A DNA stretch of 64,000 bases from an uncultured Bacteroidota bacterium (GCA_963700635.1 CAVOYH010000005.1:160001-224000), one strand, 5' to 3'. Shown: positions 5,435 to 24,106, numbered from the stretch's first letter. Numbers and translations: made by a program. Notes: generated by a model from the sequence alone, not told the origin.

Positions 5435-6711
5435 GCGGTTTCCTTCCTGCCGGGAAGAACGGAGAGCGTAACACCCGGCTGGCGATATACCCGCACGGCG
5501 CATTCCTGCACTTCGGCGGGCGTAATGCCCGCGAACCGGTCCAGATAGGATAGGAGAAGGCGTGCAGATCCGCCAAGCGTGTGGCACAGTGCCAATCCAT
5601 CAGCCCGCTGGAGCATGCTTGTAAGTCCATGAATATGATGTGATGTTTTCATGTTCAGGGATTTTTCGACCTCATGTTCCGTCGGGCCCTCGAGAAGAAG
5701 CTCTTCGATCACCGCCAGTGCCGCCGTGTGCACTTCCTCGAGGGAGTGCGCGGGGAGAGGCGTAATCTGGACAATCGTACGTCCCGTTTGCTCCAGACCG
5801 TTTTGATAGACCAGAACCGACTGGGCAATACGTTGTTCAATGACGAGCGCGCGATGCAGGCGTGAATTCTTCCCTGCATTCAGGACGTCCGTACACACGT
5901 CCAGCAGCGCATCGTCCCGGGTGTTCCATGGTGCACTGTGCCACGCGCAGTACAGGCGGGGGAGCTGAACTGTATCCCGGAGTGTCACGGTCCGCGGAGC
6001 TTCGGGCCTCACAGGCGGGAGTACGGGTTTTGGTACCGGTGCTGCTCCCGCGATCGGGCCGAAAAACCGTTCAATCGAGTCCCGTACAGCGGCGCCGTCA
6101 AAACCACCCGCGACCACCAGGCAGGCGTTGGAGGGTGTATAGTAGGTCCGGAAAAAACCCCTCACATCCTCAAGCGATGCGTTACCCAGATCGGTCATGG
6201 ACCCGATGACGGGCCAATGATAAGGGTAACGGGGAGGGTACATGGCCGCAAGAAGAGTCTCGTGCGCAAGTCCGTACGGTTGATTCTCGTAACTCTGGCG
6301 CCGTTCGTTCCGCACCACGTCCCGCTGGTTGTCCAGTTTTTCCTGCGTGAGAGCGGGCAGCAGGAACCCCATTCTGTCCGCTTCCAGAAAGAGGGCAAGA
6401 TCCAGATGTTCCGCCGGGACCAGTTGATAGTAGTTGGTGCGGTCTTCGCTGGTAGACCCGTTGACATATCCTCCCACCTCCTGCAGGCGGCGGAAGTGTT
6501 CGCCGTCAGGCACGTTCAGCGACCCCTTGAACATCATATGTTCAAAAAGATGCGCCAGTCCGGTATGCCCCGGAAGTTCATTCTTCGAACCAACGTGATA
6601 CATCACCTCAACCGCAACCACGGGGACCGATGGATCGTGGTGGAGAATGACGTGAAGGCCGTTCGGAAGGGTGTATTCGTCGAGAGACAACTCTGGAGCC
6701 TTGATACGCAT
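5431..6711 (-). CDS. M16 zinc peptidase, catalytic subunit
   Basis: 'LPNGLHVIL', 'GLAHLFEHMMFKGS' (HxxEH), 'VVRNERRQ'. Confidence 0.9.
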   Translation of the reverse strand: MRIKAPELSLDEYTLPNGLHVILHHDPSVPVVAVEVMYHVGSKNELPGHTGLAHLFEHMMFKGSLNVPDGEHFRRLQEVGGYVNGSTSEDRTNYYQLVPAEHLDLALFLEADRMGFLLPALTQEKLDNQRDVVRNERRQSYENQPYGLAHETLLAAMYPPRYPYHWPVIGSMTDLGNASLEDVRGFFRTYYTPSNACLVVAGGFDGAAVRDSIERFFGPIAGAAPVPKPVLPPVRPEAPRTVTLRDTVQLPRLYCAWHSAPWNTRDDALLDVCTDVLNAGKNSRLHRALVIEQRIAQSVLVYQNGLEQTGRTIVQITPLPAHSLEEVHTAALAVIEELLLEGPTEHEVEKSLNMKTSHHIHGLTSMLQRADGLALCHTLGGSARLLLSYLDRFAGITPAEVQECAVRVYRQPGVTLSVLPGRKETA

Positions 6712-6852
6712 AGAGAACAATATGGAGAATCGGGGGCCGAATAGCCAGCGTTGCATTTAATCGGTAACAAGCGTTTCTTGTAATGATATACGTTTGGAGT
6801 ATACAGACCGGCGACGTCTGCCGGAAAGAGGCCGAGAAGGAGTGGTGTTGTG

Positions 6853-7842
6853 ATGAAGATCGGTACACTGACAATTGATCAGGGTATTCTGCTTGCACCG
6901 ATGGAGGATGTTACGGATCTTCCGTTCCGTATCATCTGCAAACAGATGGGTGCGGATATTGTGTATACGGAATTCGTGAACTCGGACGGACTGATCCGCG
7001 GCAACAGCAAGACCAGAAGGAAGATGGAGTTCCTGGAAGAGGAGCGTCCGGTCGGGATACAGATTTACGGCGGTGATGTGGAGGTAATGGGGGGAGCTGC
7101 CAGAGAAGCGGAGAGTTTTGGTCCGGACCTCATCGACATCAATTGCGGGTGCTGGGTGCGCGATGTCGCCATGCGTGGTGCGGGTGCCGGACTCTTGCGC
7201 GATCTCCCCCGTATGGAGCGCCTCGCAAGCGCGGTGGTGCGCGCCGTGCGCACGCCGGTGACCCTCAAGACCCGTCTGGGTTGGGATGCGAAGAATATCC
7301 GCATCGTGGACGTGGCGAAGATGTGTGAGCAGGTGGGAATTCAGGCTCTCACCGTCCACTGCCGGACCCGTGATCAGGGACACAAAGGGGAAGTGGATTT
7401 TTCCTGGATTCCGCGTATCAAGGAAGCTGTCTCCATTCCCGTGATCGTGAACGGAGACATCGTGACGCCGCAGGACGTCCAGGAGACGTTTGCGTCAACC
7501 GGTTGTGACGCGGTCATGATCGGACGGGGAGCGATTCAGAATCCGTGGATTTTCCGTCAGACAAAACACTATTTGTCCACCGGACAACTTCTCCCCGAAC
7601 CCACGCTGGAGGAACGTGTGGACCTGTTCCGGCAACACCTCCATCTGGCGATCGAGCACAAGGGCGAGCGCACGGGAGTGATTGAACTCAGAAAACACTA
7701 CTCCGGATTTCTGAGGGGGATGCCCCACGTGGCAAAAATCCGCAATGAACTGATGCAGTTCACCGAAGCAGAGCCGATCCTCCAGCACCTCACACGATTC
7801 CTGGAATTGTATTCTCCGCAGGCAGACGCTCACCGTTCTTGA
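6853..7842 (+). CDS. dusB: tRNA dihydrouridine synthase
   Basis: 'LAPMEDVTD', 'DINCGC', 'TVHCRT', 'VIVNGDI', 'VMIGRGAIQNPWIF'. Confidence 0.9.
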   Translation: MKIGTLTIDQGILLAPMEDVTDLPFRIICKQMGADIVYTEFVNSDGLIRGNSKTRRKMEFLEEERPVGIQIYGGDVEVMGGAAREAESFGPDLIDINCGCWVRDVAMRGAGAGLLRDLPRMERLASAVVRAVRTPVTLKTRLGWDAKNIRIVDVAKMCEQVGIQALTVHCRTRDQGHKGEVDFSWIPRIKEAVSIPVIVNGDIVTPQDVQETFASTGCDAVMIGRGAIQNPWIFRQTKHYLSTGQLLPEPTLEERVDLFRQHLHLAIEHKGERTGVIELRKHYSGFLRGMPHVAKIRNELMQFTEAEPILQHLTRFLELYSPQADAHRS

Positions 7843-7929
7843 AGCCGATTCTTCATTTCGGTATATTATCCATTGTGTAGTTTTGCACCCACCACGGGTG
7901 CGCCATATTCTCTAAGCAGGGAGGTTGTT

Positions 7930-10017
7930 ATGCGAAAGCACTATGGCCGGCAGTTGTGCCAGCTGGTTGCAATGGGACTTCTGTTTACGTGGTCCGCTCC
8001 GGCGGACGAAGGGATGTGGACCTTTGACAACCCTCCACGAAAGCAACTCAATGAACTCTATAATTTCGAACCAACCCAGGAATGGCTGGATCACGTGCGG
8101 TTATCCAGTGTACGCTTTAATGATGGAGGTTCCGGCGCATTTGTGAGCGCGAACGGACTCGTCCTGACGAACCATCATGTCGCACGCGGCCAACTCCAGA
8201 AACTCTCCTCGCCGCAGAAGAATTATGTTGCTCATGGTTTCTATGCAAAAACCATGGCCGACGAGATCAAGGCTCCCGATCTGGAATTGAATGTTCTGGT
8301 GGGCATGGAGGATGTCACACCCCGGGTCCTGTCAATGGTGAAACCGGAGATGTCGGCAAAAGAGGCTCTGGATGCGCGGAAAGCCGCCACAGCCCGTATC
8401 TCAAAGGAGAGCAAAGAGAAAACCGGACTCCGCTCGGACGTGGTCAGCCTTTATCAGGGTGGTGAGTACTGGTTGTACACCTACAAAAAATACACGGATG
8501 TACGTCTTGTGATGGCACCGGAAGAGGGGATCGCCTTCTTCGGCGGTGACGCGGACAACTTCACCTTCCCCCGGCATGACCTCGACATGGCGTTTTTCCG
8601 TGTTTATGAAAACAACATGCCACTCAGGACGGAACACTATCTTCGCTGGAAGACCTCCGGTGCGGCGGACGGAGAACTCGTGTTTGTGTCGGGCCACCCG
8701 GGATCAACGAATCGTCTGCAGACATATGCGCAGACCGAATACCAGCGGGACTTTGTATACCCGTTGCGGCTGAAGGGGCTCAAGCGGCGCCTTGCCATGC
8801 TACGGGCGTACGCTGCACGCGGGCCTGAACAGGCACGGCAGGCAAGCGGTCAGTTGTTTGGAATCGAAAATTCGCTGAAGGTACTGGGCGGAGAATACCG
8901 CGGGTTACAGAGTAAGGAGTTGATGGCGAGAAAAGCAGCGGAGGAAAAAGAGTTCCGCGATCGGATTGCCGCAAGTCCTGACTGGACCCGACAGTATGCG
9001 TGGGCATGGGATTCCGTTGCCGCGGCCACCGAACGGACCGTCGCGTCACTCAAGACAAAAACGTACCGGCAGATCACCGGCCGGACATTCGGGTTTGCGG
9101 CGTCGCTTGTGCTGTATGCCGGGGAAATCAAGAAGCCGAATGGCGAACGTCTCTCGCTGTACCAGGATGCAAACCTGGAATCCACGAAGTTTCGTCTGTT
9201 CTCACCCGCCCCCGTCTATGCAGAACTTGATGAAATGCAGATGGCTGAAGCACTAACGGAGGCACTTGCAGAACTCGGGCCGCGGGATCCGTGGGTGGCG
9301 ACGGTGCTCGGAGGCAAGACACCCGCAGAAGTCGCCCGTGAGCTCGTACAGGGAACAAAACTCGCTGATCCCGCCGTACGCAAGGCGCTTTTCCAGGGGG
9401 GCGAGAAGGCCATTGCCACTTCTACCGATCCGATGATCGTGCTTGCCCGGAAACTTGAGCCGATGAACCGGGAAACCCGCTTGTGGGAAGAAAAAAACGT
9501 CACGGGTACAATCACCAGGGCAAGCGGGGCAATCGGAGAGGCCCGGTTTGCTGTCTATGGAAAGTCCGCGTACCCCGATGCGACGTTTACGCTGCGTCTT
9601 TCCTACGGCACGGTCAAGGGATACCCCATGAACGGCACCGTCGCTCCGTCAAAGACCACGCTCTACGGTCTGTACGACAGGGCCTATAGTTTCGATCGGA
9701 AAGGCGAATACGTGATCCCGGAGCGGTTCATCGATCGACTCCCATCGCTGGATCTCTCCACGCCCGTCAACTTCGTCAGCACCTGTGACATCATCGGCGG
9801 GAATTCGGGTTCACCCGTGATCAACAAAGCCGGTGAGTACGTCGGGTTGATCTTTGATGGAAATATCGAGAGTCTCCCCGGCCGATTCCTGTATTCAGAC
9901 GAAGCCAGCCGTTCGGTTTCTGTCCATTCTGCCTTTATGATTGAATCCCTGCGGAAACTGTACGATGCAGGACCGCTCGCAGATGAACTGGAAGAGAGAA
10001 CGGACGCGGGTGGGTAA
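7930..10017 (+). CDS. S46 family dipeptidyl peptidase, secreted
   Basis: Signal peptide then 'DEGMW', 'LTNHHV', 'PDATFTLRLSYG', 'DIIGGNSGSP', 'FDGN'; SD GGGAGG before ATG 7930. Confidence 0.92.
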   Translation: MRKHYGRQLCQLVAMGLLFTWSAPADEGMWTFDNPPRKQLNELYNFEPTQEWLDHVRLSSVRFNDGGSGAFVSANGLVLTNHHVARGQLQKLSSPQKNYVAHGFYAKTMADEIKAPDLELNVLVGMEDVTPRVLSMVKPEMSAKEALDARKAATARISKESKEKTGLRSDVVSLYQGGEYWLYTYKKYTDVRLVMAPEEGIAFFGGDADNFTFPRHDLDMAFFRVYENNMPLRTEHYLRWKTSGAADGELVFVSGHPGSTNRLQTYAQTEYQRDFVYPLRLKGLKRRLAMLRAYAARGPEQARQASGQLFGIENSLKVLGGEYRGLQSKELMARKAAEEKEFRDRIAASPDWTRQYAWAWDSVAAATERTVASLKTKTYRQITGRTFGFAASLVLYAGEIKKPNGERLSLYQDANLESTKFRLFSPAPVYAELDEMQMAEALTEALAELGPRDPWVATVLGGKTPAEVARELVQGTKLADPAVRKALFQGGEKAIATSTDPMIVLARKLEPMNRETRLWEEKNVTGTITRASGAIGEARFAVYGKSAYPDATFTLRLSYGTVKGYPMNGTVAPSKTTLYGLYDRAYSFDRKGEYVIPERFIDRLPSLDLSTPVNFVSTCDIIGGNSGSPVINKAGEYVGLIFDGNIESLPGRFLYSDEASRSVSVHSAFMIESLRKLYDAGPLADELEERTDAGG

Positions 10018-10048
10018 CACCCTCCGGCAGTCAGGAGTGGCCGAAAAT

Positions 10049-11446
10049 TTAGAACGGCCACTCCTTCTGCCTCCTCAGCCGTTTCTCCATTCCTGTCCCC
10101 TGAAACATGGCCTTTCTTTCCTCCACGCTCCGTACCCGGTAATCGATGGATGTGTTGTTTGCGAGGGTATAACTCAGAACAGACACTATGGCAGCGGCAT
10201 CAATGAGCGCACGGCGGTCAGCCTTGTCAAAGCTGTCACCAAAATCGTGATAGTGGAAGACAGATTCTTTTTCCAGATGTCCCACCATGGTGAATGACGG
10301 AATCCCCTGCAGCAGGAACGGCTGATGGTCGCTGTTCGTCCACGGGACACTCACAATCCCTCCGGACCAATCAAATCCCTTCAAAGAGTCCAGGAGATTC
10401 TGAACGAGCGGAATCAGTTCATCAAATCCCATGACGTTCACGCCGGTCGGTTTCCCGGGCATGTCCAGATTGATCATCGCCGCAATACTATCCCGGGCGT
10501 GACTGGCAAGATATGCTTTGGCCCCCCATATCCCGAGTTCTTCACCGTTGAACCATACACATTCGATGGTATAGAGATTGAACGGTGCATGCAGGGCGAG
10601 CAGCCGGGCAACTTCAAAAAGAACCGCCGAACCAACCCCGTTATCCACCGCTCCCTGACTTATGTCCCATGAATCGATATGGGCCCCGACCACGATCCTG
10701 GCTTTTCGTTTGCCCGGGAATGTCGCCACGAGATTTGCCGATTGTACCGGAAAACACCGTGATTGCGTGTTCAACCGGACGCGGATTTCCCGACCGGCAG
10801 AGAGCGACCGCCGTAGCCACGATCCCTCTTCCATGGTGATACTGTATGCGGGGACGGAACTGGGCGTCCCCTGGAAATTACTAACCCCCGCGAGCACAAG
10901 TCCTCCGGGCTTATCATTGATAAACAGAACTCCCTTCGCCCCGGCCCGCGCCGCATTGTCAATGACTTCGAGGCGCAGAGGAGATTCTCCATTACGTGGT
11001 GGCTCAGAGGTCACAAGGGCAATGGCGCCCGCAGCGCCTGCCATTTCCCTGTCAAGACCGTATCCTGCCCAGACCAGGCGGGACTCAAACGGTGCGTGTT
11101 GATTCACATAACCAAGGGCGGCGGCCCTGAGCTTCCGGGGTACGGGTGGCAGGACTTCCACACCATCGTCGCCTCTGACCCACCCGGGCATGTCAAACGG
11201 TTCCAGCCTGGAGGTGATTCCGGAGTGACGGAGTTCCTGTTCCAGGATCTGAAGCGCAAGGATGTTAGTCGCGGATCCAGCCAGACGACCCCCCGCCTCA
11301 TCACAGATTCTCTGCAGAACGCGGTACCCTTCATGAGAAGCATAGGCGGAGCCCAGAAGGGCTTCCTTCGTAGAAGGCTCACCTGCGACCGATGGTTGGA
11401 AAGAGACAGTAACAAATGCCAGGAGAAGAATTACATAACGGTTCAT
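10049..11446 (-). CDS. M28 family metallopeptidase with PA domain (carboxypeptidase Q-like)
   Basis: Signal peptide; 'GAHIDSWD', 'GAVDNG', 'GEELG', 'NLDM', 'SDHQPF', 'YHDFGD'. Confidence 0.88.
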   Translation of the reverse strand: MNRYVILLLAFVTVSFQPSVAGEPSTKEALLGSAYASHEGYRVLQRICDEAGGRLAGSATNILALQILEQELRHSGITSRLEPFDMPGWVRGDDGVEVLPPVPRKLRAAALGYVNQHAPFESRLVWAGYGLDREMAGAAGAIALVTSEPPRNGESPLRLEVIDNAARAGAKGVLFINDKPGGLVLAGVSNFQGTPSSVPAYSITMEEGSWLRRSLSAGREIRVRLNTQSRCFPVQSANLVATFPGKRKARIVVGAHIDSWDISQGAVDNGVGSAVLFEVARLLALHAPFNLYTIECVWFNGEELGIWGAKAYLASHARDSIAAMINLDMPGKPTGVNVMGFDELIPLVQNLLDSLKGFDWSGGIVSVPWTNSDHQPFLLQGIPSFTMVGHLEKESVFHYHDFGDSFDKADRRALIDAAAIVSVLSYTLANNTSIDYRVRSVEERKAMFQGTGMEKRLRRQKEWPF

Positions 11447-11610
11447 GCGAGTATCTCACTTTTGGATAGATCGTCTGGTTCTCTGTATATCCAGTGTAGG
11501 GAAGTCCCCTCAGAGAATCAACGACGTATACACCATCCGAATCCCTGCTCCCTCCCTTCACTCTCTCATTGCTTGTCCATGCGGATTATTGTACATTTCC
11601 TATCAATACC

Positions 11611-13050
11611 ATGCGAAATTCAGCACAATTTCTGCTTGATGGCCGGACCGTCAGTCTCGATTTCAGCGCCGGGTCAGGCTGGCGTCCCACGACAACCGTT
11701 CTGCAATATCTTCGCAGCCTTCCGGAACACCGGGGCGTGAAGGAAGGGTGTGCAGAGGGGGATTGCGGGGCCTGCACAGTTGTCCTGGCCGAGGAGCGGC
11801 CTGACGGCAGTCTCTCGTACAACGCGGTGGATTCCTGCCTGGTCTTTCTCCCTTCGCTTGACCGCAAGCAGCTTATCACCATTGAGAATCTAAAAGGCGC
11901 GGACGGCGCCCTCCATCCGGTGCAGTCTGCCATGATCGAGCAGTACGGCAGCCAGTGTGGATTCTGCACCCCGGGGATCGTCATGTCCCTGTTCGCCCTT
12001 TTTAAAAGTGGCGTCACGGCCACGCGTCCGCATGTACTTGACGCGCTTTCCGGGAATCTCTGCCGCTGCACGGGGTACAGGCCTATTGTTGATGCCGCCA
12101 TGGCAGCATGCGCACATCCGCGGAGTGACAAATTCTCCGAAGAGGAACAGCACACTCTGGCCCGGATCCGGGCTATTCCGCGTGAGGATGTCCTGATCGA
12201 AACAGGGACACAACGGTACTTCCGCCCGGTTTCGCTGTCGTCCGCGCTGACCTACCAGAACACCCATCCTGAAGCGCTCGTCATCAACGGGGCAACGGAC
12301 GTTGCTCTCCGGGTCACCAAACGCCACGAACTCCTGCCGTCAATTCTGGATCTTTCGGGGGTTACCGAGTTACGCTCTTGCAACCGCACACCCGGTGGAT
12401 TGGAAATAGGCGCGGGCACAACCATCCAGGAACTTCTGGCCGAATCATCGCACCAATTGTCTGCCCTGGAACAGATGCTCCGGGTTTTTGGATCGAGGCA
12501 GATCCGCAACGTTGCCACCATCGGTGGGAATCTCGGGACCGCGTCGCCCATCGGCGATGCACTTCCGGTCTTCATCGCCCTTGGTGCGGAGGTTCAGCTC
12601 CGGGATATCCGCGCCGCCAGGTCCGTCCAGATCGAAAAGTTTATTACAGGATACCGTTCGATTGATCGCCACCCCGGGGAACTCATCACAGGCGTGAGGA
12701 TTCCGACCATTCCCTCCGGTACGCTGGTACGTTCATACAAAGCCTCACGCCGTCACGATATGGATATTTCTTCAGTGTGCGCAGGGTTCCGGCTGCGTGT
12801 GGGCGGTGAGGGGAGAGTTGAGGAACTCGTCCTTGCCTACGGGGGGATGGCTGCGACGCCGGCACGGGCAAGACAAACCGAAGCCTGGCTTCTTAAAAAA
12901 CCCTGGACGAGAGAATCGGTGGAAGGAGGGATGAAGCTGATCGGGAAAGACTTCACCCCTCTGACCGATGTACGGGGGAGCGCGGAGTATCGCCTGACGG
13001 TAGCACGTAATCTCCTCCTGAAATTCTGGGACGAAACTGCCCGCGTATGA
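11611..13050 (+). CDS. xdhA: Xanthine dehydrogenase small subunit (2x[2Fe-2S] + FAD)
   Basis: 'KEGCAEGDCGACT', 'QCGFCTPG', 'GNLCRCTGYRPI', 'QIRNVATIGGNL', 'SPIGD'. Confidence 0.93.
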   Translation: MRNSAQFLLDGRTVSLDFSAGSGWRPTTTVLQYLRSLPEHRGVKEGCAEGDCGACTVVLAEERPDGSLSYNAVDSCLVFLPSLDRKQLITIENLKGADGALHPVQSAMIEQYGSQCGFCTPGIVMSLFALFKSGVTATRPHVLDALSGNLCRCTGYRPIVDAAMAACAHPRSDKFSEEEQHTLARIRAIPREDVLIETGTQRYFRPVSLSSALTYQNTHPEALVINGATDVALRVTKRHELLPSILDLSGVTELRSCNRTPGGLEIGAGTTIQELLAESSHQLSALEQMLRVFGSRQIRNVATIGGNLGTASPIGDALPVFIALGAEVQLRDIRAARSVQIEKFITGYRSIDRHPGELITGVRIPTIPSGTLVRSYKASRRHDMDISSVCAGFRLRVGGEGRVEELVLAYGGMAATPARARQTEAWLLKKPWTRESVEGGMKLIGKDFTPLTDVRGSAEYRLTVARNLLLKFWDETARV

Positions 13051-15381
13051 ACCCTCTCCTCCCACATGAAAGCGCACGGGGACACGTTACGGGGGAAGCC
13101 CTGTTTGTGGATGATCTTCCGGAACCGGAAAGGCTGCTTACCGGGCGTGTCGTGTACAGCCCCCATGCCCGCGCACGCGTCCGGTCGTTTGATCTGAAAG
13201 CGGCCAGATCCGTTCCGGGCATCCATGCCGTCCTTTCGGCTTCCGATATTCCCGGCCAGAATCAGATGGGCCCGGTAATCAAAGATGAGCCCGTCCTTGC
13301 TGCCGATGAAGTGTTCTGTATCGGGCAGGCTGTATTTCTTATCGCCGGAGAGACGGAGGAGCAATGCCGCGAAGCCGAACGGCAGATCAAGGTTGAGTAT
13401 GAACCCCTTGAGTCCGTTCTCACGCTCACCGAGGCAATGGCAAAGGGATCGGTGCTCGGACCGCCCCGGAAGATCGAGCGTGGTGATGCACCGGGCGTGA
13501 TCCGGGATGCACCGCTGACGAATCTCGGGAGAGCTGGAGACGGGGGCGCAGGAGCACTGGTATCTTGAGACGCAGGTTTGTCTCTGCGTGCCTCTTGAAT
13601 CAGACCAGATGCAGGTGTTCAGCTCGACCCAGCACCCATCCGAAACGCATGCCCTTGTGGCTCAGGTCCTGGGATGGCCCCGCAACGCGGTGACGGTTGA
13701 GGTGAGGCGGGTCGGCGGCGGATTTGGCGGAAAGGAAACGCAGGCAAACCATGTGGCGTGCTGGGCGGCCCTGCTTGCGTTTGCCACCGGGCGTCCGGTG
13801 AAAATCCGGCTCTTCCGGGATGATGATATGATTATGACCGGCAAACGCCACCGGTTTCTGATCCGGTACGAGGCCGGCTTTGATCGTGAAGGTATGCTGC
13901 TGGGTGTGGTGCTGGAATTGAACAGTGACGGTGGGGCGGCGACGGATCTTTCTTTTGCCATCCTTGAGCGTGCGATGTTGCACGTCGATAACAGTTATTT
14001 CCTTCCCGCGTGCTCCGTGACCGGCTGCGTATGGAAGACAAACCTCCCGTCCAACACGGCCTTCCGCGGATTCGGGGGTCCACAGGGGATGGCGGCGATT
14101 GAAACGATCATGGACCGGATCGCACGGACAGTACAGCAGGATCCGGCAGAGATCCGGCGGAAGAATTTTTACCGTGCTTCCCCCACGGATACCACGCACT
14201 ACGGACAGGTGGTGGAGAACAACCGGCTGGACTTCATCTATGACCGGCTCCTCGGCTCGTCGGACTACGTCCGGCGGCGTCTCGACATCGAGGCGTTTAA
14301 CGCCGGACATGAATTTCAGAAGCGCGGCATCGCGCTGACGCCCGTAAAATTTGGGATCTCGTTCACCACCACGTTCCTGAATCAGGCGGGGGCACTCGTC
14401 AGTATCTATACCGACGGAACGGTGCTGGTGAACCACGGCGGGGTGGAAATGGGGCAGGGGCTCCACACCAAAATCCAGGGTGTGGCTGCCGCCGAATTCG
14501 GCATCAATCCTTCGTTTGTGCGGGTGAACGCGACAAACACCGGTACCATTCCAAACACGTCGGCAACGGCCGCATCCTCGGGCGCTGACATGAATGGCAT
14601 GGCGGTCAAGAATGCGGTGGACATTCTCAAGGGGCGTATGGTCGAGGGACTCGCCCGGCATTTCTCGGTGTTACATCTGGGTGATCCCACGATGCCCGGG
14701 GATCTCCGGTTTTCGGATGACCGCATCGTCGATTCAAAACATCCGGACCGGATGGTGACGTTCAGAGAAGGTGTTCAACTTCTCTACCTCCAGCGGGTCA
14801 GCTTGAGCGCTGCCGGGTTCTACACCACGCCGGAGATCGGCTGGGACCGGCAGAAAGGCCGGGGACGTCCGTTTCTTTATTATGCGTTCGGCATGGCCGT
14901 CAGCGAGGTGCTGGTTGACGTGCTTACCGGTGACCATACGGTCGTGCGCACGGATATTGCTCATGATGTCGGGGATTCGCTGAATCCCGGCATCGATATC
15001 GGACAGGTGGAAGGGGGATTTCTTCAGGGGGTGGGGTGGTGTACGACGGAGGAGGTTCTCTGGGACCAGCACGGCCGGCTTCTCACCCATTCACCCGATA
15101 CGTACAAGATCCCCACGGCGGGTGATATGCCTCCGGATTTCCGTGTTGAGTTGCTCACCGGTGTCCCTCAACCGGGCACCATCCGCAGGAGTAAGGCCGT
15201 GGGTGAACCGCCGTTTATGCTGGCACTCTCTGTCTGGCTCGCCATCAAGGACGCACTCTCAGCGATCACGGACCATACGGTTGAACCGGAATTCTCTCTT
15301 CCCGCAACACGGGAACGGATTGTCCGTACTGCTGAAATGCTCAGGTCCACAAAAACTCAACCGGTTTCATATTCATCGTAA
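13047..15381 (+). pseudogene. xdhB: Xanthine dehydrogenase molybdopterin-binding subunit, split by an apparent +1 insertion near 13518 (probably a sequence error; likely intact in vivo)
   Basis: ORF 13047-13568 ('PHESARGHVTGEA') and ORF 13588-15381 join into 'DAPLRISGELETGAQEHWYLETQ' if A13518 is removed. 'GGFGGKETQ', 'AFRGFGGPQG', 'EMGQGL' and 'KAVGEPP' are all intact. Confidence 0.9.
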
Positions 15382-15411
15382 TCGTATTTTGCGCAAAGAA
15401 CACAGGAGTCT

Positions 15412-16737
15412 ATGAAGACAACATCAAACGCTCAGGAATCCATCCGGCAGGCCGGTGTGGTAGGTGCCGGTGGGGCTGGATTCCCCACGCATGTGAAGGC
15501 CGCTGCGAAGGTCGATACCATCATCGCGAACGGTGCAGAGTGTGAACCTCTTATCCACAAGGACTACGAAGTGATGGTCCACCAAGCGCCGGAGATCGTC
15601 AGAGGGGTGCGCGCGCTCATGCATGCCACCGGTGCACCCAGAGGGATCATCGGGATGAAGGAAAAAAATGCGGCTGCGGTGGAGGCGATCTCAAAAGCCA
15701 TCGATGGAAAAGACGTGTCGATCCATCTCCTCGGAGATTTTTATCCGTCCGGTGATGAGTACATCCTCGTCTACGAAGCCACCGGGCGCCTGATTCCGCC
15801 GCAGGGAATACCCCTGGATGTCGGGGTGGTTGTGAACAACGTTGAAACACTTTACAATATCGCGCGCGCTGCCGATGGAATGCCGGTCACGCAGAAGTGG
15901 ATTACCGTGGCAGGTGCGGTGCGCAAACCGGTAACATTCCGCGCTCCCATCGGCATGTCATTTCAGGAGGCGCTGGCGGCAGCCGGAGGCGCCACGACAT
16001 CGGAATTCGGGGTGTTCGTGGGTGGGATCATGATGGGAGCTCTCGAATTTGATATGAGTCGTGTCATCACAAAAACCACCGCCGGCCTGGTGGTCCTGCC
16101 CGTGGATCATCAATTGATCGTGCGGAAACGACAGCCTGAGAAGGTGATGCACAAAATCGGGAAATCGGCGTGCGATCAGTGCACGTTCTGCACGGAGCTC
16201 TGCCCGCGTTATCTCCTGGGATATGACGTCCAGCCGCACAAAGTCATGCGCAGTCTTGGCTTCACCAAGACGGGTGAGGCGTTCTGGAATCAATATGCTT
16301 CACTCTGTTGCGCCTGCGGCCTGTGCACCCTCTATGCCTGCCCTGAAAACCTGTTCCCGAAGGAGGCGTGTGACAAGGGGAAAGCGGATATGAAAGAACA
16401 CGGGGAGAAGTGGGAAGGGAACCGGGAGGTCAAACCCCATGCGATGTATGAGGGGCGCCGCACACCACTCAAGGGGTTGATGAAGAAGCTGGGCGTCACC
16501 GCGTATGACCATCCGTCGATATTCCAGAATGCCACCCCGGCCCCGCGGCGGGTGTCCATCCCGCTCGCGCAGCATATCGGTACGCCCGCTTCAGCCATCG
16601 TGAAACCCGGCGAGCGCGTGGAAGAGGGAGCATGTATTGCCGACATTCCCGGCGAAAAACTCGGCGCCCGGATTCACGCCAGCATTGGCGGCATCGTCCG
16701 CAGCGTTGATACAGCCATTGTCATTGAACAAGGATAA
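15412..16737 (+). CDS. pduS: PduS-like (RnfC-related) FMN/[4Fe-4S] oxidoreductase
   Basis: 'GVVGAGGAGFPTHVK', 'NGAECEP', SLBB-like segment, 'CDQCTFCTELCP', 'CCACGLCTLYACP', C-terminal 'IPLAQHIGTPA...IHASIGG' barrel; same domain order as PduS. Confidence 0.82.
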   Translation: MKTTSNAQESIRQAGVVGAGGAGFPTHVKAAAKVDTIIANGAECEPLIHKDYEVMVHQAPEIVRGVRALMHATGAPRGIIGMKEKNAAAVEAISKAIDGKDVSIHLLGDFYPSGDEYILVYEATGRLIPPQGIPLDVGVVVNNVETLYNIARAADGMPVTQKWITVAGAVRKPVTFRAPIGMSFQEALAAAGGATTSEFGVFVGGIMMGALEFDMSRVITKTTAGLVVLPVDHQLIVRKRQPEKVMHKIGKSACDQCTFCTELCPRYLLGYDVQPHKVMRSLGFTKTGEAFWNQYASLCCACGLCTLYACPENLFPKEACDKGKADMKEHGEKWEGNREVKPHAMYEGRRTPLKGLMKKLGVTAYDHPSIFQNATPAPRRVSIPLAQHIGTPASAIVKPGERVEEGACIADIPGEKLGARIHASIGGIVRSVDTAIVIEQG

Positions 16738-16740
16738 CAT

Positions 16741-17292
16741 ATGCAAAAAAATTCCATCGGTTTAGTTGAACTCTCCAGTATCGCCGCCGGATTTCTTGTC
16801 GCCGACGCCATGCTCAAAGCTGCCGAGGTGGAGATTCTCCTCTCACGCACCATCTGCTCCGGGAAATATATGGTTCTTGTGGGCGGAGATGTTGCCGGGG
16901 TGACAGCCAGCGTTGAAGCCGGCATCGCAATCGGCGAAGGTACGGTTATTGACACCTTCGTGATCCCCAATGTCCATGCTTCGTTGTTTCCGGCGCTGGG
17001 CGGAACGGCAAAAGTGACTTCGCTGGAGGCGCTCGGGATTATTGAATCGTTCTCGGTGGCCTCGATGATCGAAGCCGCGGATGCGGCGGCAAAAGCTGCG
17101 AAAGTCCAGCTTATCGAACTCCGGCTTGCCATGGCGCTCGGAGGGAAGGCCTTCGTGACGCTTACCGGCGATGTCGCGGCCGCCCAGGCTGCCGTGGATG
17201 CCGGCGCAGCCGTTGTCGCGTCAAAGGGACTGCTGGTCAACAAGGTGGTTATTCCCGCCCCCCGCCGGGAACTCCTGTCGGAGATTGTGTGA
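16741..17292 (+). CDS. pduT: PduT-like tandem-domain bacterial microcompartment shell protein (BMC-T)
   Basis: Two BMC domains ('IGLVELSSIAAGFLVADAMLKAAEV' and 'LGIIESFSVASMIEAADAAAKAAKV'); 'TICSGKY' carries Cys39, equivalent to the PduT pore Fe-S ligand. Confidence 0.88.
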   Translation: MQKNSIGLVELSSIAAGFLVADAMLKAAEVEILLSRTICSGKYMVLVGGDVAGVTASVEAGIAIGEGTVIDTFVIPNVHASLFPALGGTAKVTSLEALGIIESFSVASMIEAADAAAKAAKVQLIELRLAMALGGKAFVTLTGDVAAAQAAVDAGAAVVASKGLLVNKVVIPAPRRELLSEIV

Positions 17293-18830
17293 TCTCCTTC
17301 AAACTGGCCCTGCCGATCGTATGCGTGACTGCATGTGTTTCATGTGGAGCCCCTGCACCGTCAATTCTGCGTGACTCACAGGTTGTGTCCGCAGAGCGGG
17401 CAGCATCTCACGTCAGATACCTGGCATCCGATGCCCTGCTCGGGCGTAATACGCCGAGTCCCGGGCTGGACAGCGCGGCCGTGTACATCGCACGGACGTT
17501 CGCGGAAGCCGGTCTCCAGCCCGTCCATGGGTCGTATTTTCAGGAGGTGGTGCTGAATACCGTGGCTCTTGGCGACACGAATACGCTTGCGCTCACCATG
17601 GCGGGGCACATCGAACACTTTGTCCTGAAAGATGATTTTGTCCCGTTCGACATGACTGCGAACAACAGCGTCTCCGGGGATATTGTTTTCGCCGGCTACG
17701 GTATTGTTGCACCGGAGTATGGATACGATGATTATGCGGAGCTGGATGTAAAGGGGAAGATCGTGGCCGTGCTCCGCCATGAACCGGGCGAGGAGGACAC
17801 CGCATCGGTGTTCAACGGGCGGAAGAGCACGGACTATTCCAACGTTTTAACCAAGGTGCGTATCGCGATGGAACGTGGTGCGGCGGGCCTGCTGGTGATG
17901 ACGGATCCGCTGAATCATCGATCCCTTACACCCAGGGGGTTTGCCTGGCCGTCTCTCTCCCGGACTATCCCGCAGGACGCCCTTCCGATGACCCTTGTGG
18001 TGGAGGAATCGGCAAAGATACCCGTCCTCCATATCGGCGAACGGGTGATTACACGGTTGTTCGGGAGCGTAGATTCGCTGCGCGCGATACAGGCGGGTAT
18101 TGATGCCTCGGTGTCTCCGCGCTCCTACCCGTTGACGGGGATTTCGGGAACGATGCGGACTTCAACCTCAATCCGGGTCCACGCGACACGCAATGTGGTG
18201 GGATTGATGCCGGGCACCGATCCCCGGTCCGAGTTGTCCGTGGTAATCGTCGGCGCCCATTACGACCACGTTGGATACAAAAAGAACAGTCCCGCCGGCA
18301 CAGACTCCATCTATAATGGTGCTGATGACAACGCCTCCGGGACCGCGGCCCTGCTCGAGGTGGCTGCGGCGCTTGGTGCGTCCGGATCCCGGCCTGCCCG
18401 GCCAATTCTCCTCGTGGCGTTCACCGGTGAAGAAAAGGGACTGTTCGGCTCGCAGTACTACGCACAACATCCGCTCTTTCCTCTTGCAGAGACCGTGGCC
18501 ATGCTCAATATGGATATGGTCGGGCGAAACGATCCGGATTCACTTTTGCTCATCGTTGATGACCGCGATTCATCCCTCATGCGTATAGCCCGGGAGGAGA
18601 ACACACCTCCTTCATTTATCCTCACCCGATCGTACGTGGAAGCAGGGGGGAGCGATCATTTGAGTTTTAGCAAGCACACTATACCCGTCCTCTTTTTCCA
18701 CTCCGGCCTGCACGCCGAGTATCATCGTGTGGCCGACGAAGCACATCGTGTTAATGCTGAGAAAATCGCGCGGGTAGCCGGACTGGTGTTTCGCACCGCC
18801 CGGCGGCTGGCAGAAGCCCCGCTACAGTAG
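17289..18830 (+). CDS. M28 family peptidase with PA domain, probable lipoprotein
   Basis: 'LASDALLGR', 'VFAGYGI', 'GAHYDHVG', 'GADDNASG', 'GEEKGLFGS', 'NMDMVGR', 'SDH'; GTG start overlaps the pduT stop. Confidence 0.88.
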   Translation: MISFKLALPIVCVTACVSCGAPAPSILRDSQVVSAERAASHVRYLASDALLGRNTPSPGLDSAAVYIARTFAEAGLQPVHGSYFQEVVLNTVALGDTNTLALTMAGHIEHFVLKDDFVPFDMTANNSVSGDIVFAGYGIVAPEYGYDDYAELDVKGKIVAVLRHEPGEEDTASVFNGRKSTDYSNVLTKVRIAMERGAAGLLVMTDPLNHRSLTPRGFAWPSLSRTIPQDALPMTLVVEESAKIPVLHIGERVITRLFGSVDSLRAIQAGIDASVSPRSYPLTGISGTMRTSTSIRVHATRNVVGLMPGTDPRSELSVVIVGAHYDHVGYKKNSPAGTDSIYNGADDNASGTAALLEVAAALGASGSRPARPILLVAFTGEEKGLFGSQYYAQHPLFPLAETVAMLNMDMVGRNDPDSLLLIVDDRDSSLMRIAREENTPPSFILTRSYVEAGGSDHLSFSKHTIPVLFFHSGLHAEYHRVADEAHRVNAEKIARVAGLVFRTARRLAEAPLQ

Positions 18831-18855
18831 TTAATCACTTTCATCAGGGAGACAT

Positions 18856-19716
18856 ATGAGACACCACGTTGCTGTTCTAACGGCGGTACTGCTGGTTGCC
18901 GCCGGACTCCAGGACGCGTACGCAGATGATCCCACGACACTCCGCATGAAACTGGAGAAGGGAAAAAGTTATGTGTATGCCGATGCTGTTCGCGCGGACG
19001 TGACCCAGGAGATGGGCGGACAGGAAATGAAGATTAATACACATTCGCTTGTTGTGAGCCGGATTTCCGTGGAGGGGATTCGTCAGGATGGCTCATTTTC
19101 CCTGATCACCGTCGTGGATTCTCTCCTCTCGTCGGTTAAATCACCCATGCAGGACACCACGAGACTGATGACCGAGATGATGGGGAAACGCTCCCGGGTG
19201 GTTCTTTCACCCCTCGGCAAGGTCGTGGAGCGCGCCGTCATCGATTCGGTGAAGGGGTCACGGCAGATGATGCGCGGTTCTGCAGTCCGCGAGGTGGTCC
19301 GCTTCCACACACTTCCCGAGCAACCCGTGATTCCGGGTTCGCAGTGGACGGTCTCGACGCTGGATTCAACAGATGCGATGAACGGACACATGGTGACCGC
19401 GTATACAATCACGTACACCTTCGCCGGAAATGAAGAAAAAGGTGGGAGGCGTTGCGTCAAGATCACCTACACCGGAACGATGACCATCGAAGGGAAGGGC
19501 TCGATGATGGGGATGGAGGTCTTTTCAGAGGGGAAGGGGACACTCAGCGGAACCTGGCATTTTGATCCGCAGGCAGGTCTTACGGTCGCCGAGGAAGGTC
19601 TTCTGGATACCGACGTCACCCTGGCAATGACCGGCCAGCAGAACATGACCATCCCCATTACATCCTCAACAAAGGTCAGCCGCTCCCTCAGGTCGGCGGA
19701 AGCGATCACTAAATGA
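18856..19716 (+). CDS. Secreted beta-rich hypothetical protein (DUF6263-like)
   Basis: Signal peptide; 'LRMKLEKGKSY', 'LPEQPVIPGSQWT'; SD GGGAG. Confidence 0.6.
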   Translation: MRHHVAVLTAVLLVAAGLQDAYADDPTTLRMKLEKGKSYVYADAVRADVTQEMGGQEMKINTHSLVVSRISVEGIRQDGSFSLITVVDSLLSSVKSPMQDTTRLMTEMMGKRSRVVLSPLGKVVERAVIDSVKGSRQMMRGSAVREVVRFHTLPEQPVIPGSQWTVSTLDSTDAMNGHMVTAYTITYTFAGNEEKGGRRCVKITYTGTMTIEGKGSMMGMEVFSEGKGTLSGTWHFDPQAGLTVAEEGLLDTDVTLAMTGQQNMTIPITSSTKVSRSLRSAEAITK

Positions 19717-21027
19717 GCGGCGCGCGGATGGGACGTCTTCTGGTGCTCCTGCTTGCGGTGCTGCTCGGGTTGCAGGGTTTTGCCTTTGCAGAGCCTGATG
19801 AACATGCGGCGCGCCGGGCGGTTGTACTGGGGCTGCTGGATTCGTCGGCCGGACTTGTGCTACGATCGGCGGAAATGCAGATGCGGTCCGGCGATGCGAA
19901 TCACCGGTTCCGTCAGGAGAGTCATCTCCTGTATCTGACGGGTGAGAACAGGCCGGGTCTTACGCTTCTGCTCGCCCCCCGGGGAATTCAGGTGGGCGAT
20001 ACGCTGGTACAGGTGGTTCTGTTTGTGCAGAAGGGAAGTGCCGACGGCGCGCCTCCACTCCGTCCGCTTCCGGATGGCATCACGGCTGACTACCGGCAGT
20101 TCACAGAAGTGCTCCTGGCACTTGCTCCCCATCTGAAGACTCTCTACGCATCATCGTTATCACCCGGCTTCGTGAACGACTGGCTCAACAACACTCCCCT
20201 GTTTCTGGAACGGGAGAGCAGGAAGGCATTCGAAAAAAAATTCCCGCAGGTAAAGGTGAAGAAGTGCCGGGACGCTTGTCGGGCAGGCAAGGGTGATCAA
20301 GAGTCCGTGGGAGGTTGACCGGATCCGTACATCGATCGCCGCGACGGGAGAGGGGTTGCGGCGTGTTATGGAATTGTGCAGGCCGGGAATGCGGGAGTAC
20401 GAGCTGCAGGCTGTGGTGGAGTACGAAATGATGCGCCGCGGCGCTTCAGCCCCTGCGTTTCAGTCCATCATCGGGTCCGGACCAAACGCCTTGATCCTGC
20501 ACTACGAGCACAACAGGCGGACTCTCGCCGCCGGTGAACTTGTGGTGATGGATGTGGGGGCGGAGATTGACGGTTATGCGGCGGACGTTACGCGCACGAT
20601 TCCGGTCTCGGGTACTTTCACAGCTGAACAGCGTACAGTCTACAACGCCGTGCTGCGCGCGCGGGATTCGGTTGTCTCGCGTATCCGGAGTGGTTTGCCA
20701 TGGGCGGAGCTGGATCGGGTAGCCAAAGCGGTTCTTGCCGCAGAAGGTTTTGGGAGCTTCTGGCGTCATTCGGTATCCCATTTTCTGGGGATTGATGTTC
20801 ACGATGTCGGGAAAATGGACACCTTGCGCGCGGGGATGGTGTTGACGGTTGAGCCGGGTGTTTATATCCCCGAAAACGACACTACCGTGGCTGCACACTT
20901 CAGGGGGATTGGCGTACGGATTGAGGACGACGTTCTTGTGACCCAGTCGGGGGCAGTTGTGTTGAGCGACGGTATTCCCCGGACGGTCAAAGAGATTGAG
21001 AAGTTGATGAAAAAGGGGAAAAAGTAG
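19713..21027 (+). pseudogene. pepP: Xaa-Pro aminopeptidase (M24B), split by an apparent +1 insertion near 20262 (probably a sequence error)
   Basis: N-part 'FRQESHLLYLTG'; C-part 'IKSPWE', 'ILHY', 'DVG', 'ADVTRT', 'HFLGIDVHD', 'TVEPGVY', 'RIEDD'. Removing one A gives 'KVKSAGTLVGQARVIKS'. Confidence 0.85.
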
Positions 21028-21044
21028 GGCCTATCACTTTCTTC

Positions 21045-21092
21045 TTGACTTTGTGATATGTAAATGATATCATTACAATATCACAAAGGAGG
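21045..21092 (+). promoter_or_regulatory. sigma70 promoter overlapped by a 40-bp palindromic operator, followed by an SD site
   Basis: TTGACT (21045-50), 17 bp spacer, TATCAT (21068-73); palindrome CTTTGTGATAT-GTAA-ATGATATCAT-TACA-ATATCACAAAG at 21049-21088; AAAGGAGG at 21085-92. Confidence 0.8.
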
Positions 21093-21099
21093 TCTGTAA

Positions 21100-21972
21100 A
21101 TGGATGCCATCCGTGAGATTCCCGCCAATCGAGTAAGTGGATTTGTGGCGCTGGTATTTGTGATTCTGTTATGGGCCATTGCGGTCTGGTTGCTGGTAGA
21201 CCTGATCCTGATACGACAACCGGTTCTGCTCTGGATCGATGTTCCGCTTTTTGTCCTTGCCGGGCTGCTTCTCAGCGGGTTTTATGTAGTCCAGCCGAAC
21301 GAAGCCCGGGTTCTCGTATTCTTCGGACGGTATATCGGTTCGGTACGTGAAGCCGGATTCTGGTACTCAAATCCCTTTGCCGTCAAGCGTCATGTCTCAC
21401 TCCGGATCCGCAATTTCAACAGCGACCGGCTTAAGGTGAATGACCTGCAGGGTAACCCGATTGAGATCGCCGCGGTGGTCGTCTGGCGTGTTGTGGATTC
21501 GGCGAAAGCACTTTTTGACGTGGAGAATTACGAAGGTTTTGTTGCGATTCAGAGCGAGACCGCAATCCGGGCGATGGCGTCACGGTATCCGTATGATGCA
21601 CATGTTGAGGGGCAGCCCTCCCTGCGCGGAAATCCGGATGAGGTCTCGGAAACCCTTCGCGTGCAGGTGCAGGCCCGACTGGATGTCGCCGGCGTTGAAA
21701 TCCAGGAAGCGCGGATCAGTCATCTCGCCTATGCGCAGGAGATCGCCCAGGCCATGCTGAGGCGTCAGCAGGCGGAAGCGATTGTTGCGGCCCGCCAGAA
21801 AATCGTGGAGGGTGCCGTGGGGATGGTCGAAAGTGCACTCAAGATGTTGAGTGAGCAGAAAGTCATCGAACTGGACACAGAGCGGAAGGCCGCAATGATC
21901 AACAACCTGCTGGTCGCGCTGGTGTCCGAACATGAAGTACAGCCGGTGATCAACGCAGGATCACTTTATTAA
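21100..21972 (+). CDS. SPFH (band 7/stomatin-prohibitin) membrane protein
   Basis: Two N-terminal TM helices, '[16 protein letters not shown]', '[18 protein letters not shown]', '[10 protein letters not shown]'. Confidence 0.9.
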
Positions 21973-22190
21973 TGAGTGACAAGAAGCGCTTTCTCCTCCG
22001 CGTGAACGGTGAGCTGTACGAGGTAATGGAAAAATGGGCGGCTGATGAGTTGCGGAGTGTCAACGCGCAAATAGAGTTTCTGCTTAGTGAAGCCGCCCGC
22101 CATGCCGGGCGGCTTCGGCACAACAATCCCCCTCCGGCTTCCGATCCCCCTACCGAAGACACATCCCGCGCGGACTCTCCTACTGCTTGA
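21972..22190 (+). CDS. Arc-like ribbon-helix-helix DNA-binding protein
   Basis: 'KKRFLLRVNGELYEVMEKWAADELRSVNAQIEFLL'; TAATG coupling to the SPFH gene. Confidence 0.85.
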   Translation: MSDKKRFLLRVNGELYEVMEKWAADELRSVNAQIEFLLSEAARHAGRLRHNNPPPASDPPTEDTSRADSPTA

Positions 22191-23222
22191 GATGGATAGT
22201 CTGCGTGGGAAAGGCAAACTGAATCCCTTCCGCTCCGAACCGCCGTGCGATCGCCAGGTTGATCGTCTCCTGCGTGTTCATGTACTGCGCATAGTCAGGA
22301 TTCTCCGACGTAATAGACGATCTCAAAGAGAAGTGCAAAGTCCCCGAACGACTTGAAATGGGCCCGATCGAAGCGGGCCAGCGGCACCGATGAGACAATG
22401 TCCTGCAACCACCCCGGAATCTTTTCCAGCTTTTCGGCCGGTGTCTGGTACTCAACACCGATCGAAAACAGTATCCTGCGTTCCTGCATACGCTTAAAAT
22501 TCCTGATCCGGGTGTGCAACAGATCGGTGTTGGAGATGACGATCTGCTCACCCGACAGGCTCCTGATGCGTGTGGTCTTGAGTCCCACATGCTCGATGTT
22601 CCCGCTCAGCGTGTCCACCACAATAAAATCCCCGATGACAAACGGTTTGTCGAGTGCAATGGAAAGCGATGCGAATAAATCACCGAGGACGTTCTGCAGT
22701 GCGAGGGCGACGGCGATGCCGCCGATACCCAGGCCGGCCACCAGCGCGGTGACGTCGACGCCCAGATTATCCAGCGCCAGCAGCAGAACAAGTGCCCAGA
22801 GCACAACTTTGCCCACGAAACTCAGCGCGGACAACGTCATGGCGCCCGTCGTATCGGTGCCCGTATGCTTGTTGTGTTGCGCGTGAAATGGCGAATGACA
22901 GCAGACCATTTCCCCAGACCCCGCCCTGGAGAAGCATGGTCAGGACAATGAAGATTCGCAGGATGTCCTGTACTTCAGCTGTTTTGTTCAGAATATGCGA
23001 CGCGGCATATATCGAAACCGCCATAAAAAAATAAAATCGCGTCCGCCCCAGAAGATCTACAATCAAATCGTCGATCTCATTTGTAGTCTTCTGCGCCAGT
23101 GTTCTTAGCCTCCGGACAACCAGACTCTTGATCAGTACGAGGAGGACGGTCCCGAGGAGGACCACGGCGGCAGCGACAATCCAGGTGCGGAGGGTATTAT
23201 CAAAATAGATTTCGTCGAGCAT
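22180..23222 (-). pseudogene. mscS: MscS-family mechanosensitive channel, split by two apparent +1 insertions (about 22872 and 22306)
   Basis: Three consecutive frames: TM N-part; 'ALVAGLGIGGIAVALALQ...DKPFVIGDFI...VGLKTTRIRSLSGE'; C-terminal 'GIQFAFPTQTIHL'. Confidence 0.85.
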
Positions 23223-23261
23223 GGCCAATGATTGGGTGTGAGAAGAAAATGTCGGTTACGT

Positions 23262-23994: not shown

Positions 23995-24106
23995 GAGAAT
24001 GGTTCCTCCGGAATGGTGACACGTGATCAGGCTCATAGTACCAAATTTCCAGCAATCTTCCTATATTAGTGTACAAGTTCGTCCCATTCACGCACAGGAT
24101 TTCTTC

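Follow-up and report, generated by a model that had tools for sequence, protein, structure and literature searches.

The subject of this analysis is a stretch of 64,000 nucleotides (nt), hereafter the window, from an uncultured Bacteroidota bacterium (GCA_963700635.1 CAVOYH010000005.1:160001-224000), in which a gene block at 11611-17292 places the pair pduS-pduT behind the xanthine dehydrogenase (XDH) genes xdhA and xdhB. The pair is the published module of MNdh and the bacterial microcompartment (BMC) protein BMC-TSE, and both the pair and its position as a satellite are already known. We believe, with a probability of roughly 0.55, that this satellite serves nucleoside catabolism, where it would couple the oxidation of sugar inside the shell to the reduction of urate outside it, and that it is likely co-regulated with purine breakdown. 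The new part is the recurrent purine-operon context of the known module, which we have not found in print. The genes of the block and the element ahead of them are the following.

11569..11597, plus strand: conserved promoter-like element (TTGCTT, 17 nt, TG-TACATT), 13 nt ahead of the xdhA start and shared with the upstream regions of orthologs
11611..13050, plus strand: xdhA, 2Fe-2S/FAD subunit of xanthine dehydrogenase, Rhodobacter type with its own FAD domain (TIGR02963, PF00111, PF01799, PF00941, PF03450)
13047..15381, plus strand: xdhB, molybdopterin subunit, in two frames in the assembly (TIGR02965 on both halves; 1jro_B)
15412..16737, plus strand: pduS, encoding MNdh, a predicted NADH dehydrogenase with flavin mononucleotide (FMN) and two 4Fe-4S clusters, circularly permuted relative to RnfC (PF01512, PF10531, PF13534, C-terminal PF13375)
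16741..17292, plus strand: pduT, encoding BMC-TSE, a tandem-domain shell protein with a pore cysteine (two PF00936 domains; TICSGKY, Cys39)

The gene order given by the original prediction was borne out by the sequence and by hidden Markov models (HMMs): xdhA and xdhB overlap by ATGA at 13047, 30 nt separate the xdhB stop (15381) from pduS, and 3 nt separate pduS from pduT. XdhA scores 539.5 bits against TIGR02963 (cut-off 467). The top PDB match of XdhB is the xanthine dehydrogenase chain 1jro_B (E 7.8e-178), with whose motifs the predicted GGKETQ, AFRGFG and VGEPP do align, and the matches to TIGR02963 and TIGR02965 together with the catalytic Glu, Arg and Glu motifs identify the enzyme as a Rhodobacter-type XdhAB. 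Both cysteine cluster motifs of PduS are invariant across 14 aligned homologs, and its PDB matches are RnfC chains. In PduT the predicted pore cysteine Cys39 was confirmed and is invariant, together with Gly41 and Lys42, in 14 homologs; the structure matches are PduT 3n79 and 3pac.

In a Clostridium homolog, MNdh/BMC-TSE oxidizes NADH and passes the electrons via FMN along a series of three 4Fe-4S clusters that ends in the BMC-T pore; such pairs are described as frequent satellites, possibly used anaerobically, and the in vivo acceptor is left open (Sutter et al., 2024, PMC11626177). The dataset of the same study lists FRAG1 Ignavibacteria carrying the pair. The module of the window agrees with the published one in the four-domain MNdh, the adjacent single-layer BMC-T with its pore cysteine, the presence of aldehyde dehydrogenases (AldDHs) and a full shell set in the genome, and the satellite position; a further shared feature is a main locus in which no alcohol dehydrogenase was seen. 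It differs in its location within purine-catabolic operons, whereas the available portions of that paper give no specific co-occurring acceptor, and in its pore motif, CSGK with Ser for Pro, against the published CP(G/S)K (PMC11626177). The words 'xanthine' and 'purine' are absent from both supplementary files of PMC11626177, and no statement of a purine link of PduS/PduT was found in the literature searched, which covered few subscription papers and no preprint supplements. A role of PduS as a B12 reductase was set aside on the basis of the literature, as far as the available portions go.

A profile search of the window gave no further BMC-H or BMC-P match, and tblastn gave neither a PduP-type AldDH nor xdhC there; no search was aimed at B12 enzymes. 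The claim that no other microcompartment genes accompany the operon holds for the window and fails for the genome. In the source assembly, which is 97% complete, the genome-wide profile search returned five PF00936 and three PF03319 matches, with three BMC-H and three BMC-P genes on contigs C3 and C4, and xdhC lies on contig C1. With shell genes on other contigs, the proposal of a satellite locus proved correct. The loci elsewhere in the genome that matter here are as follows.

C4:417623-422958: MIC4-like locus (L009) with a BMC-P triplet, PduL, a PduP-type AldDH, BMC-H, a class II aldolase and AckA
C3:703070-703946: FRAG1-type BMC-H pair of 97 and 191 aa, one long-tailed, 89% and 49% identical to the pair of the relative G041
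C1:235614-237137: acetylating AldDH with a C-terminal tail, adjoining ruvB (L171); TIGR02518 at 598.9 bits, just below the cut-off of 620.1
C4:344757-345611: DeoC (deoxyribose-phosphate aldolase) with an N-terminal extension made of an amphipathic helix and a Cys-rich linker (L185)
C1, about 10391-24850: anaerobic purine cluster and xdhC (L130), with a PreTA-like reductase, SsnA, YgeY, a HyuA-like protein, a Mo hydroxylase, YgeW and pyridoxal phosphate (PLP) enzymes

The evidence that carries the proposed coupling is comparative. The main survey covered 201 genomes of the order, and a further sample comprised 61 relatives. PduS is present in 81 of the 201 genomes and an xdhB match in 102, 91 of these close. 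Close PduS was defined as at least 55% identity (66 genomes), and the PLP enzyme of the purine cluster was used as the purine marker; it occurs in 53/66 close-PduS genomes against 24/135 others. Among the 119 genomes positive for the acetylating AldDH of the dispersed type, 51 have both close PduS and the PLP enzyme, 11 only PduS, 6 only the PLP enzyme and 51 neither (phi 0.72), whereas the corresponding table of close PduS and xdhB in the same genomes reads 50/12/29/28. Because the first table is the tighter one, PduS is tied to the reductive purine pathway more than to XDH. When each of the 61 genera was represented by a single genome, phi was at least 0.60 in 1000 draws. Two anaerobic control genes also correlate with close PduS, namely HypD (phi 0.43) and a gene that we take to belong to the arginine pathway (phi 0.54). 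In the 76 genomes that carry both controls, the table of PduS and the PLP enzyme is 47/8/3/18, and in genus g21 five genomes have both genes and five neither, pduS being unlinked to the purine genes there. As lifestyle controls, NrdD (1/201), PFOR (5/5) and FeFe hydrogenase, lysine aminomutase and Hcp (0/5 each) were uninformative.

PduS also follows the shell and its enzymes. A BMC-type AldDH is present in 76 of the 81 PduS genomes, and in three of the five that lack it a contig ends where this gene usually lies or close by. BMC-P was found in 24 of the 25 PduS genomes among the 61 relatives, the exception being 79% complete. Conversely, 11 of the 14 PLP-positive genomes without a BMC-type AldDH are without PduS, and seven of these, which were checked, also lack BMC-P.

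Gene order points in the same direction. The synteny of xdhAB-pduS-pduT was found to be conserved, so that the first observation named as able to refute the original prediction, a lack of such conservation in relatives, does not apply; xdhB lies directly or one gene 5' of pduS in 13 genomes that belong to five genera of one family (11 of the 201 and two of the 61 relatives). Another 15 genomes (11 from family f5, three from f6 and one from f1) have pduS-pduT inside the anaerobic purine genes or abutting them, usually between the PLP enzyme and ygeY; the gaps range from -4 to 124 nt. These figures rest on pduS neighbourhoods fetched for 61 of the 81 PduS genomes, with the window and G004 judged by sequence and coordinates; in the remaining 18, match coordinates give no xdhB or PLP enzyme within 10 kb. 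The relative G067 shows the order xdhA, xdhB, thrC-like, ssnA, ygfK, selenium-type XDH (Se-XDH), PLP enzyme, pduS, pduT, ygeY, ygeW, xdhC, and six relatives without a nearby pduS-pduT also have xdhAB at the head of the purine cluster. Given this long operon and these six clusters, the order in the window is most simply a deletion product, and xdhAB-pduS-pduT would be the remnant of a longer anaerobic urate operon.

A FastTree phylogeny was built from 134 PduS rows (132 different), with rows shorter than 360 aa and one duplicate locus excluded. The window falls in a clade of 30 rows (support 85), of which 22 are purine-linked, compared with 1 of the 104 rows outside. This single row, L065 from the Acidobacteriota (Terriglobia), stands on a separate branch and appears to represent a separate recruitment of the pair into a purine cluster. 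In L065, pduS-pduT lies inside a mixed purine/carbamoyl-phosphate cluster together with a Mo hydroxylase, an SsnA-like protein, carbamate kinase, three carbamoyltransferases and a truncated YgfK.

The reductive urate (2,8-dioxopurine) pathway is described as a four-electron sink (bioRxiv 2025.04.24.650524; bioRxiv 2025.05.19.654654), and its first enzyme takes neither NADH nor NADPH, its donor being reported as unknown (bioRxiv 2025.04.24.650524). The genes found here match this pathway in the Mo hydroxylase, the YgfK-/PreTA-like reductase, SsnA, the HyuA-like protein, YgeW, YgeY, the PLP enzyme and carbamate kinase. They differ from it in that the PLP enzyme is no clear YgeX and that a Rhodobacter-type xdhAB often heads the cluster. 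In the C1 cluster, YgeW and YgeY exceed their NCBIfam cut-offs and the remaining members were assigned by Pfam and BLAST; the Mo hydroxylase has its Mo and 2Fe-2S subunits, and no FAD subunit was found for it. The hydantoinase-like gene of this cluster is in two pieces in the present assembly. In relatives, YgfK homologs of 650-690 aa (L120:2222-4258 in G041; L202 in G067) without the NAD(P)H-binding domain lie beside a selenium-type XDH without FAD. As the one lacks its NAD(P)H domain and the other its FAD, both reductases would need a donor other than NAD(P)H. The word 'microcompartment' occurs in the available portions of neither preprint.

From the genes, the dispersed shell set, the two AldDHs, the extended DeoC, the C1 purine cluster and the comparative pattern, all of which were directly observed, we infer the following mechanism. 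Nucleosides of scavenged DNA would be split and deoxyribose-5-phosphate would enter the shell, where the aldolase and the acetylating AldDH would yield glyceraldehyde-3-phosphate, acetyl-CoA and luminal NADH, whose electrons MNdh/BMC-TSE would export. Outside the shell, XdhAB would produce urate from hypoxanthine and from xanthine. The reducing equivalents would be absorbed, most likely via shared soluble carriers, by the reductive 2,8-dioxopurine pathway, which takes up a net four electrons. The MIC4-like sugar-aldolase locus (C4:417623-422958), at which no alcohol dehydrogenase was seen, would likewise rely on the same pduS-pduT. Three questions left open in the available portions of published work meet at this point: what accepts the electrons of MNdh/BMC-TSE in vivo (PMC11626177), what donates electrons to the urate Mo enzyme (bioRxiv 2025.04.24.650524), and what FRAG1 does (PMC8217296). 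For each of them the comparative pattern offers a concrete pairing that can be tested. It further suggests that a widespread uncultured lineage may recycle environmental DNA through a compartmentalized branch for the sugar and, coupled to it, an electron sink made of purines.

The cargo side of this mechanism rests on enzymes that lie apart from one another. The genome holds two BMC-type AldDHs. The PduP-type enzyme occurs in just 23/201 genomes of the order; as sole cargo it was dropped on this count, and the second AldDH was then found. The acetylating enzyme beside ruvB occurs in 119/201 genomes, with 32/38 BMC-P-positive genomes carrying it against 0/13 BMC-P-negative ones. In 5/5 genomes checked, DeoC is extended at its N-terminus by about 70 residues, and this extension begins with the amphipathic helix wherever the start was recovered. 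The predicted amphipathic terminal helices of DeoC and AldDH resemble those described for SPU enzymes (PMC11585597). FRAG1 has been termed 'shell protein only', with PduS/T in 24/57 FRAG1 loci (Sutter et al., 2021, PMC8217296), a catalogue of stand-alone pairs that also contradicts the earlier view of such a locus as unusual for the FCB lineage. On the present evidence FRAG1 appears to have a hidden core of DeoC and an acetylating AldDH with encapsulation-like helices. No statement of such a core was found in the same literature; the two large supplementary archives of PMC8217296, which may show these neighbourhoods, were outside its scope.

A more specific version of the proposal, which we judge rather improbable, is that FRAG1 is a scattered deoxyribose-phosphate metabolosome of the SPU kind, with the MNdh/BMC-TSE pore wiring luminal NADH to the 2,8-dioxopurine pathway. 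The fermentation of a deoxynucleoside would then use its sugar as the donor inside and its base as the acceptor outside. If true, this reading would at one stroke supply the acceptor of BMC-TSE, the cargo of FRAG1 and the donor for urate reductases that lack a flavin. The genes found here agree with FRAG1 as described in the BMC-H pair with one C-terminally extended member, in the scattered genes and in the presence of PduS/T in some genomes (PMC8217296). They differ in that FRAG1 is described there without enzymes, whereas DeoC and the acetylating AldDH with extensions are present here, and in that the only BMC-P triplet of this genome lies within the MIC4-like locus. The SPU BMC shares with our genes the extension of about 70 residues at the N-terminus of its deoxyribose-phosphate aldolase, a C-terminal extension of AldDH (SPU6) and a PduS homolog; the genes are scattered here, and SPU6 is reported without PduS (Doron et al., 2024, PMC11585597).

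The C3 BMC-H pair adjoins no enzyme genes. The sole BMC-P genes of the genome are the three that stand together in the C4 locus, so that the scattered 2+1 pattern of FRAG1, present in the relatives G041, G062, G067, G134 and G143, is absent here, and FRAG1-type pentamers were not found in this genome (identity of just 39-44%). At about 119046-121130 on C4 (L210:9062-11131), deoB (phosphopentomutase) lies directly 5' of a sigma-factor gene. In relatives a BMC-P pair follows deoB (G041) or lies just ahead of that sigma-factor gene (family f5), which suggests that a FRAG1 pentamer pair may have been lost here. Since the only pentamer genes are those of the C4 locus, a single shell set may be common to both types of organelle. 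This locus was matched by gene content to the published MIC4 (Sutter et al., 2021) and PVM-like (Axen et al., 2014, PMC4207490) descriptions, with which it shares an AldDH with an N-terminal extension, PTAC, a PF00596 aldolase, acetate kinase, one BMC-H and a BMC-P triplet. It departs from MIC4 in that pduS-pduT lies outside the locus; moreover, the PduP-type AldDH is present in 11/66 close-PduS genomes, and the purine-linked PduS clade is mostly found in genomes without a MIC4-like locus.

A number of observations weigh against the coupling that we favour. The genomes are related, so that the P values of all co-occurrence tests are overstated, and the correlation of PduS with both anaerobic controls means that lifestyle accounts for part of the signal. 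Five of the ten mixed genera (g15, g45, g61, g63, g86) are not fully concordant (the other five are), and 11/62 AldDH-positive close-PduS genomes lack the PLP marker. The marker itself is uncertain: at the thresholds used NCBIfam names neither of the two C1 PLP (PALP) enzymes as YgeX, and the top hits are to cysteine synthases and fall short of the cut-off. In the tree, 93/134 rows have an 'other' context and 18 lie within BMC loci, most stand-alone pairs having no purine neighbours, and in the clade of the window seven of the 30 rows lie away from purine genes and one beside shell genes. The physical purine link may go back to one ancient insertion and one in Acidobacteriota, and the support of the clade is just 85. 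On the cargo side, DeoC, AldDH and the FRAG1-type BMC-H lie on C4, C1 and C3, respectively, and not in a single SPU-style locus. The terminal-helix test is weak, as 1-10% of shuffles reach the scores of BMC enzymes and one non-cargo C-terminus scored 3%, and no encapsulation-peptide HMM hits are given for FRAG genomes in the available portions of Sutter et al. (2021, PMC8217296). Furthermore, the transcript of the window apparently continues into unrelated peptidase genes, which makes operon membership weak evidence there, and the assembly is 6.7% contaminated, though G001, G003 and G005 show the same gene set.

The strongest competitor, although in our judgement an improbable one, is that pduS-pduT is an ordinary mobile satellite that serves the dispersed shell, landed once in an anaerobic purine operon and has stayed there by inertia, with a shared lifestyle and no metabolic coupling. 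Pairs do occur in dozens of unrelated contexts, and in a GTDB scan stand-alone pairs in varied contexts form the majority among the best 80 of 585 hits. Satellites have been described as common, possibly for anaerobic conditions (PMC11626177). The correlation with the two controls, the 8/30 clade members outside a purine context and the unrelated peptidase genes that overlap pduT in the window fit this view as well. Against inertia stand the persistence of the purine correlation in the genomes with both controls and within g21, where the genes are unlinked, the presence of the pair in a further purine cluster, on the separate branch of L065, and the fact that the pair remains beside purine genes while its immediate neighbours vary (PLP enzyme, ygeY, xdhB).

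It is considerably less probable that the PduT pore cluster hands its electrons straight to the flavin-less urate-reducing Mo hydroxylase or to the truncated YgfK. This would suit the C1 Mo hydroxylase, for which no FAD subunit was found, as well as clusters of the G041 type, in which a Se-XDH without FAD domain and a YgfK (679 aa) without the NAD(P)H-binding domain have pduS-pduT among them, and the characterized urate enzyme does use neither nicotinamide cofactor (bioRxiv 2025.04.24.650524). The pair is, however, equally embedded where the Mo enzyme has a FAD subunit (G134, G140, G062, G086, G143, G160, G130), in the window it adjoins a FAD-containing XdhAB and not a flavin-less enzyme, and shell-less purine degraders manage without it. 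The idea that pduS-pduT specifically substitutes for a missing FAD subunit is weakened by the clusters that have both. The reduction potential of urate lies near -0.35 to -0.4 V. Compared with this value, the Fe-S potentials of the homolog, -147, -217 and -349 mV (PMC11626177), would make two of the three assignments uphill.

The original prediction offered two explanations, of which a purine-catabolic microcompartment encoded elsewhere now seems very unlikely. In the form considered here, the dispersed shell would enclose XDH or further enzymes of purine breakdown, and PduS would reoxidize the NADH made there. The tight, conserved linkage of xdhAB-pduS-pduT behind one conserved promoter-like element and the NAD-type architecture of XdhAB speak for this explanation. 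Yet the shell genes go with aldolase/AldDH cargo and not with purine enzymes, the extended aldolase and AldDH being the better cargo candidates, and the ends of XdhA and XdhB show no encapsulation-like amphipathic helix by the same weak test. The presence of PduS follows the anaerobic purine cluster far more closely than it follows xdhB, and among the AldDH-positive genomes 29 carry xdhB but no close PduS and 12 carry close PduS but no xdhB. The BUF1/Xau xanthine BMC likewise has xanthine dehydrogenase genes near BMC genes, but it is described as a full Firmicutes shell locus without AldDH or MNdh, its XDH step is placed outside the shell, and its hydrolase set is not found at the locus of the window (Ravcheev et al., 2019, PMC6620236).

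The other explanation, a redox module of XDH, PduS and PduT that has no shell and in which the trimer would carry Fe-S clusters in soluble form, agrees with the lack of any other shell gene in the 64 kb window and with the in vitro stability and activity of the homologous MNdh-BMC-TSE complex without a shell (PMC11626177), but is largely refuted by the full set of BMC-H and BMC-P in the genome, by the association of PduS with BMC-P and BMC-type AldDH described above, and by 7/7 checked shell-less purine degraders without a PduS match.

Regarding the regulation that the favoured coupling would involve, the promoter-like pattern at 11569..11597 has one match in the window, none in 100 shuffles, and matches in 8/210 loci, all of them xdhB-pduS loci; it was derived from the window and six of the eight matching loci, only L207 and L208 being independent. 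We regard it as a putative promoter. A generic promoter and terminator scan gave nothing above shuffles and missed this conserved element. Since the region upstream of xdhA has no 8-mer motif in common with those upstream of the C1 purine cluster, DeoC, AldDH and the shell genes, co-regulation within this genome is without sequence support.

The reading frame of xdhB is interrupted in the assembly (13047-13568 and 13588-15381) by one surplus base near 13511-13530. On account of this frameshift the larger half alone scores 837.6 against TIGR02965, below the cut-off of 849.5. Because the intact XdhB of three relatives (769-782 aa) maps over both halves, and because a nearby aminopeptidase P-like gene (19713-21027), checked against relatives, is split likewise into two open reading frames (ORFs), the break is probably an assembly error and not real. 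An MscS-like gene (window 22295-23228) is also in two ORFs, which fits a single-base assembly error; here relatives were not compared. Concerning the space between xdhB and pduS, a SoxA/TsdA-like cytochrome c gene, checked by Pfam, occupies it in G009 (L020:3165-4085); a gene of cytochrome-c size is found there in G209 (L139) and also ahead of xdhC in G020. Downstream of the block the following gene was annotated.

17289..18830, plus strand: M28 peptidase gene with a GTGA overlap with the pduT stop (PF04389)

The same neighbour is found in related genera. It is probably on the pduT transcript but unlikely to have a part in the mechanism. The region at 4100-21027 around the xdh-pdu block is dense in peptidases (two M16-like, S46, two M28 and the aminopeptidase P-like gene), a run that would fit a protein- and detritus-scavenging lifestyle.

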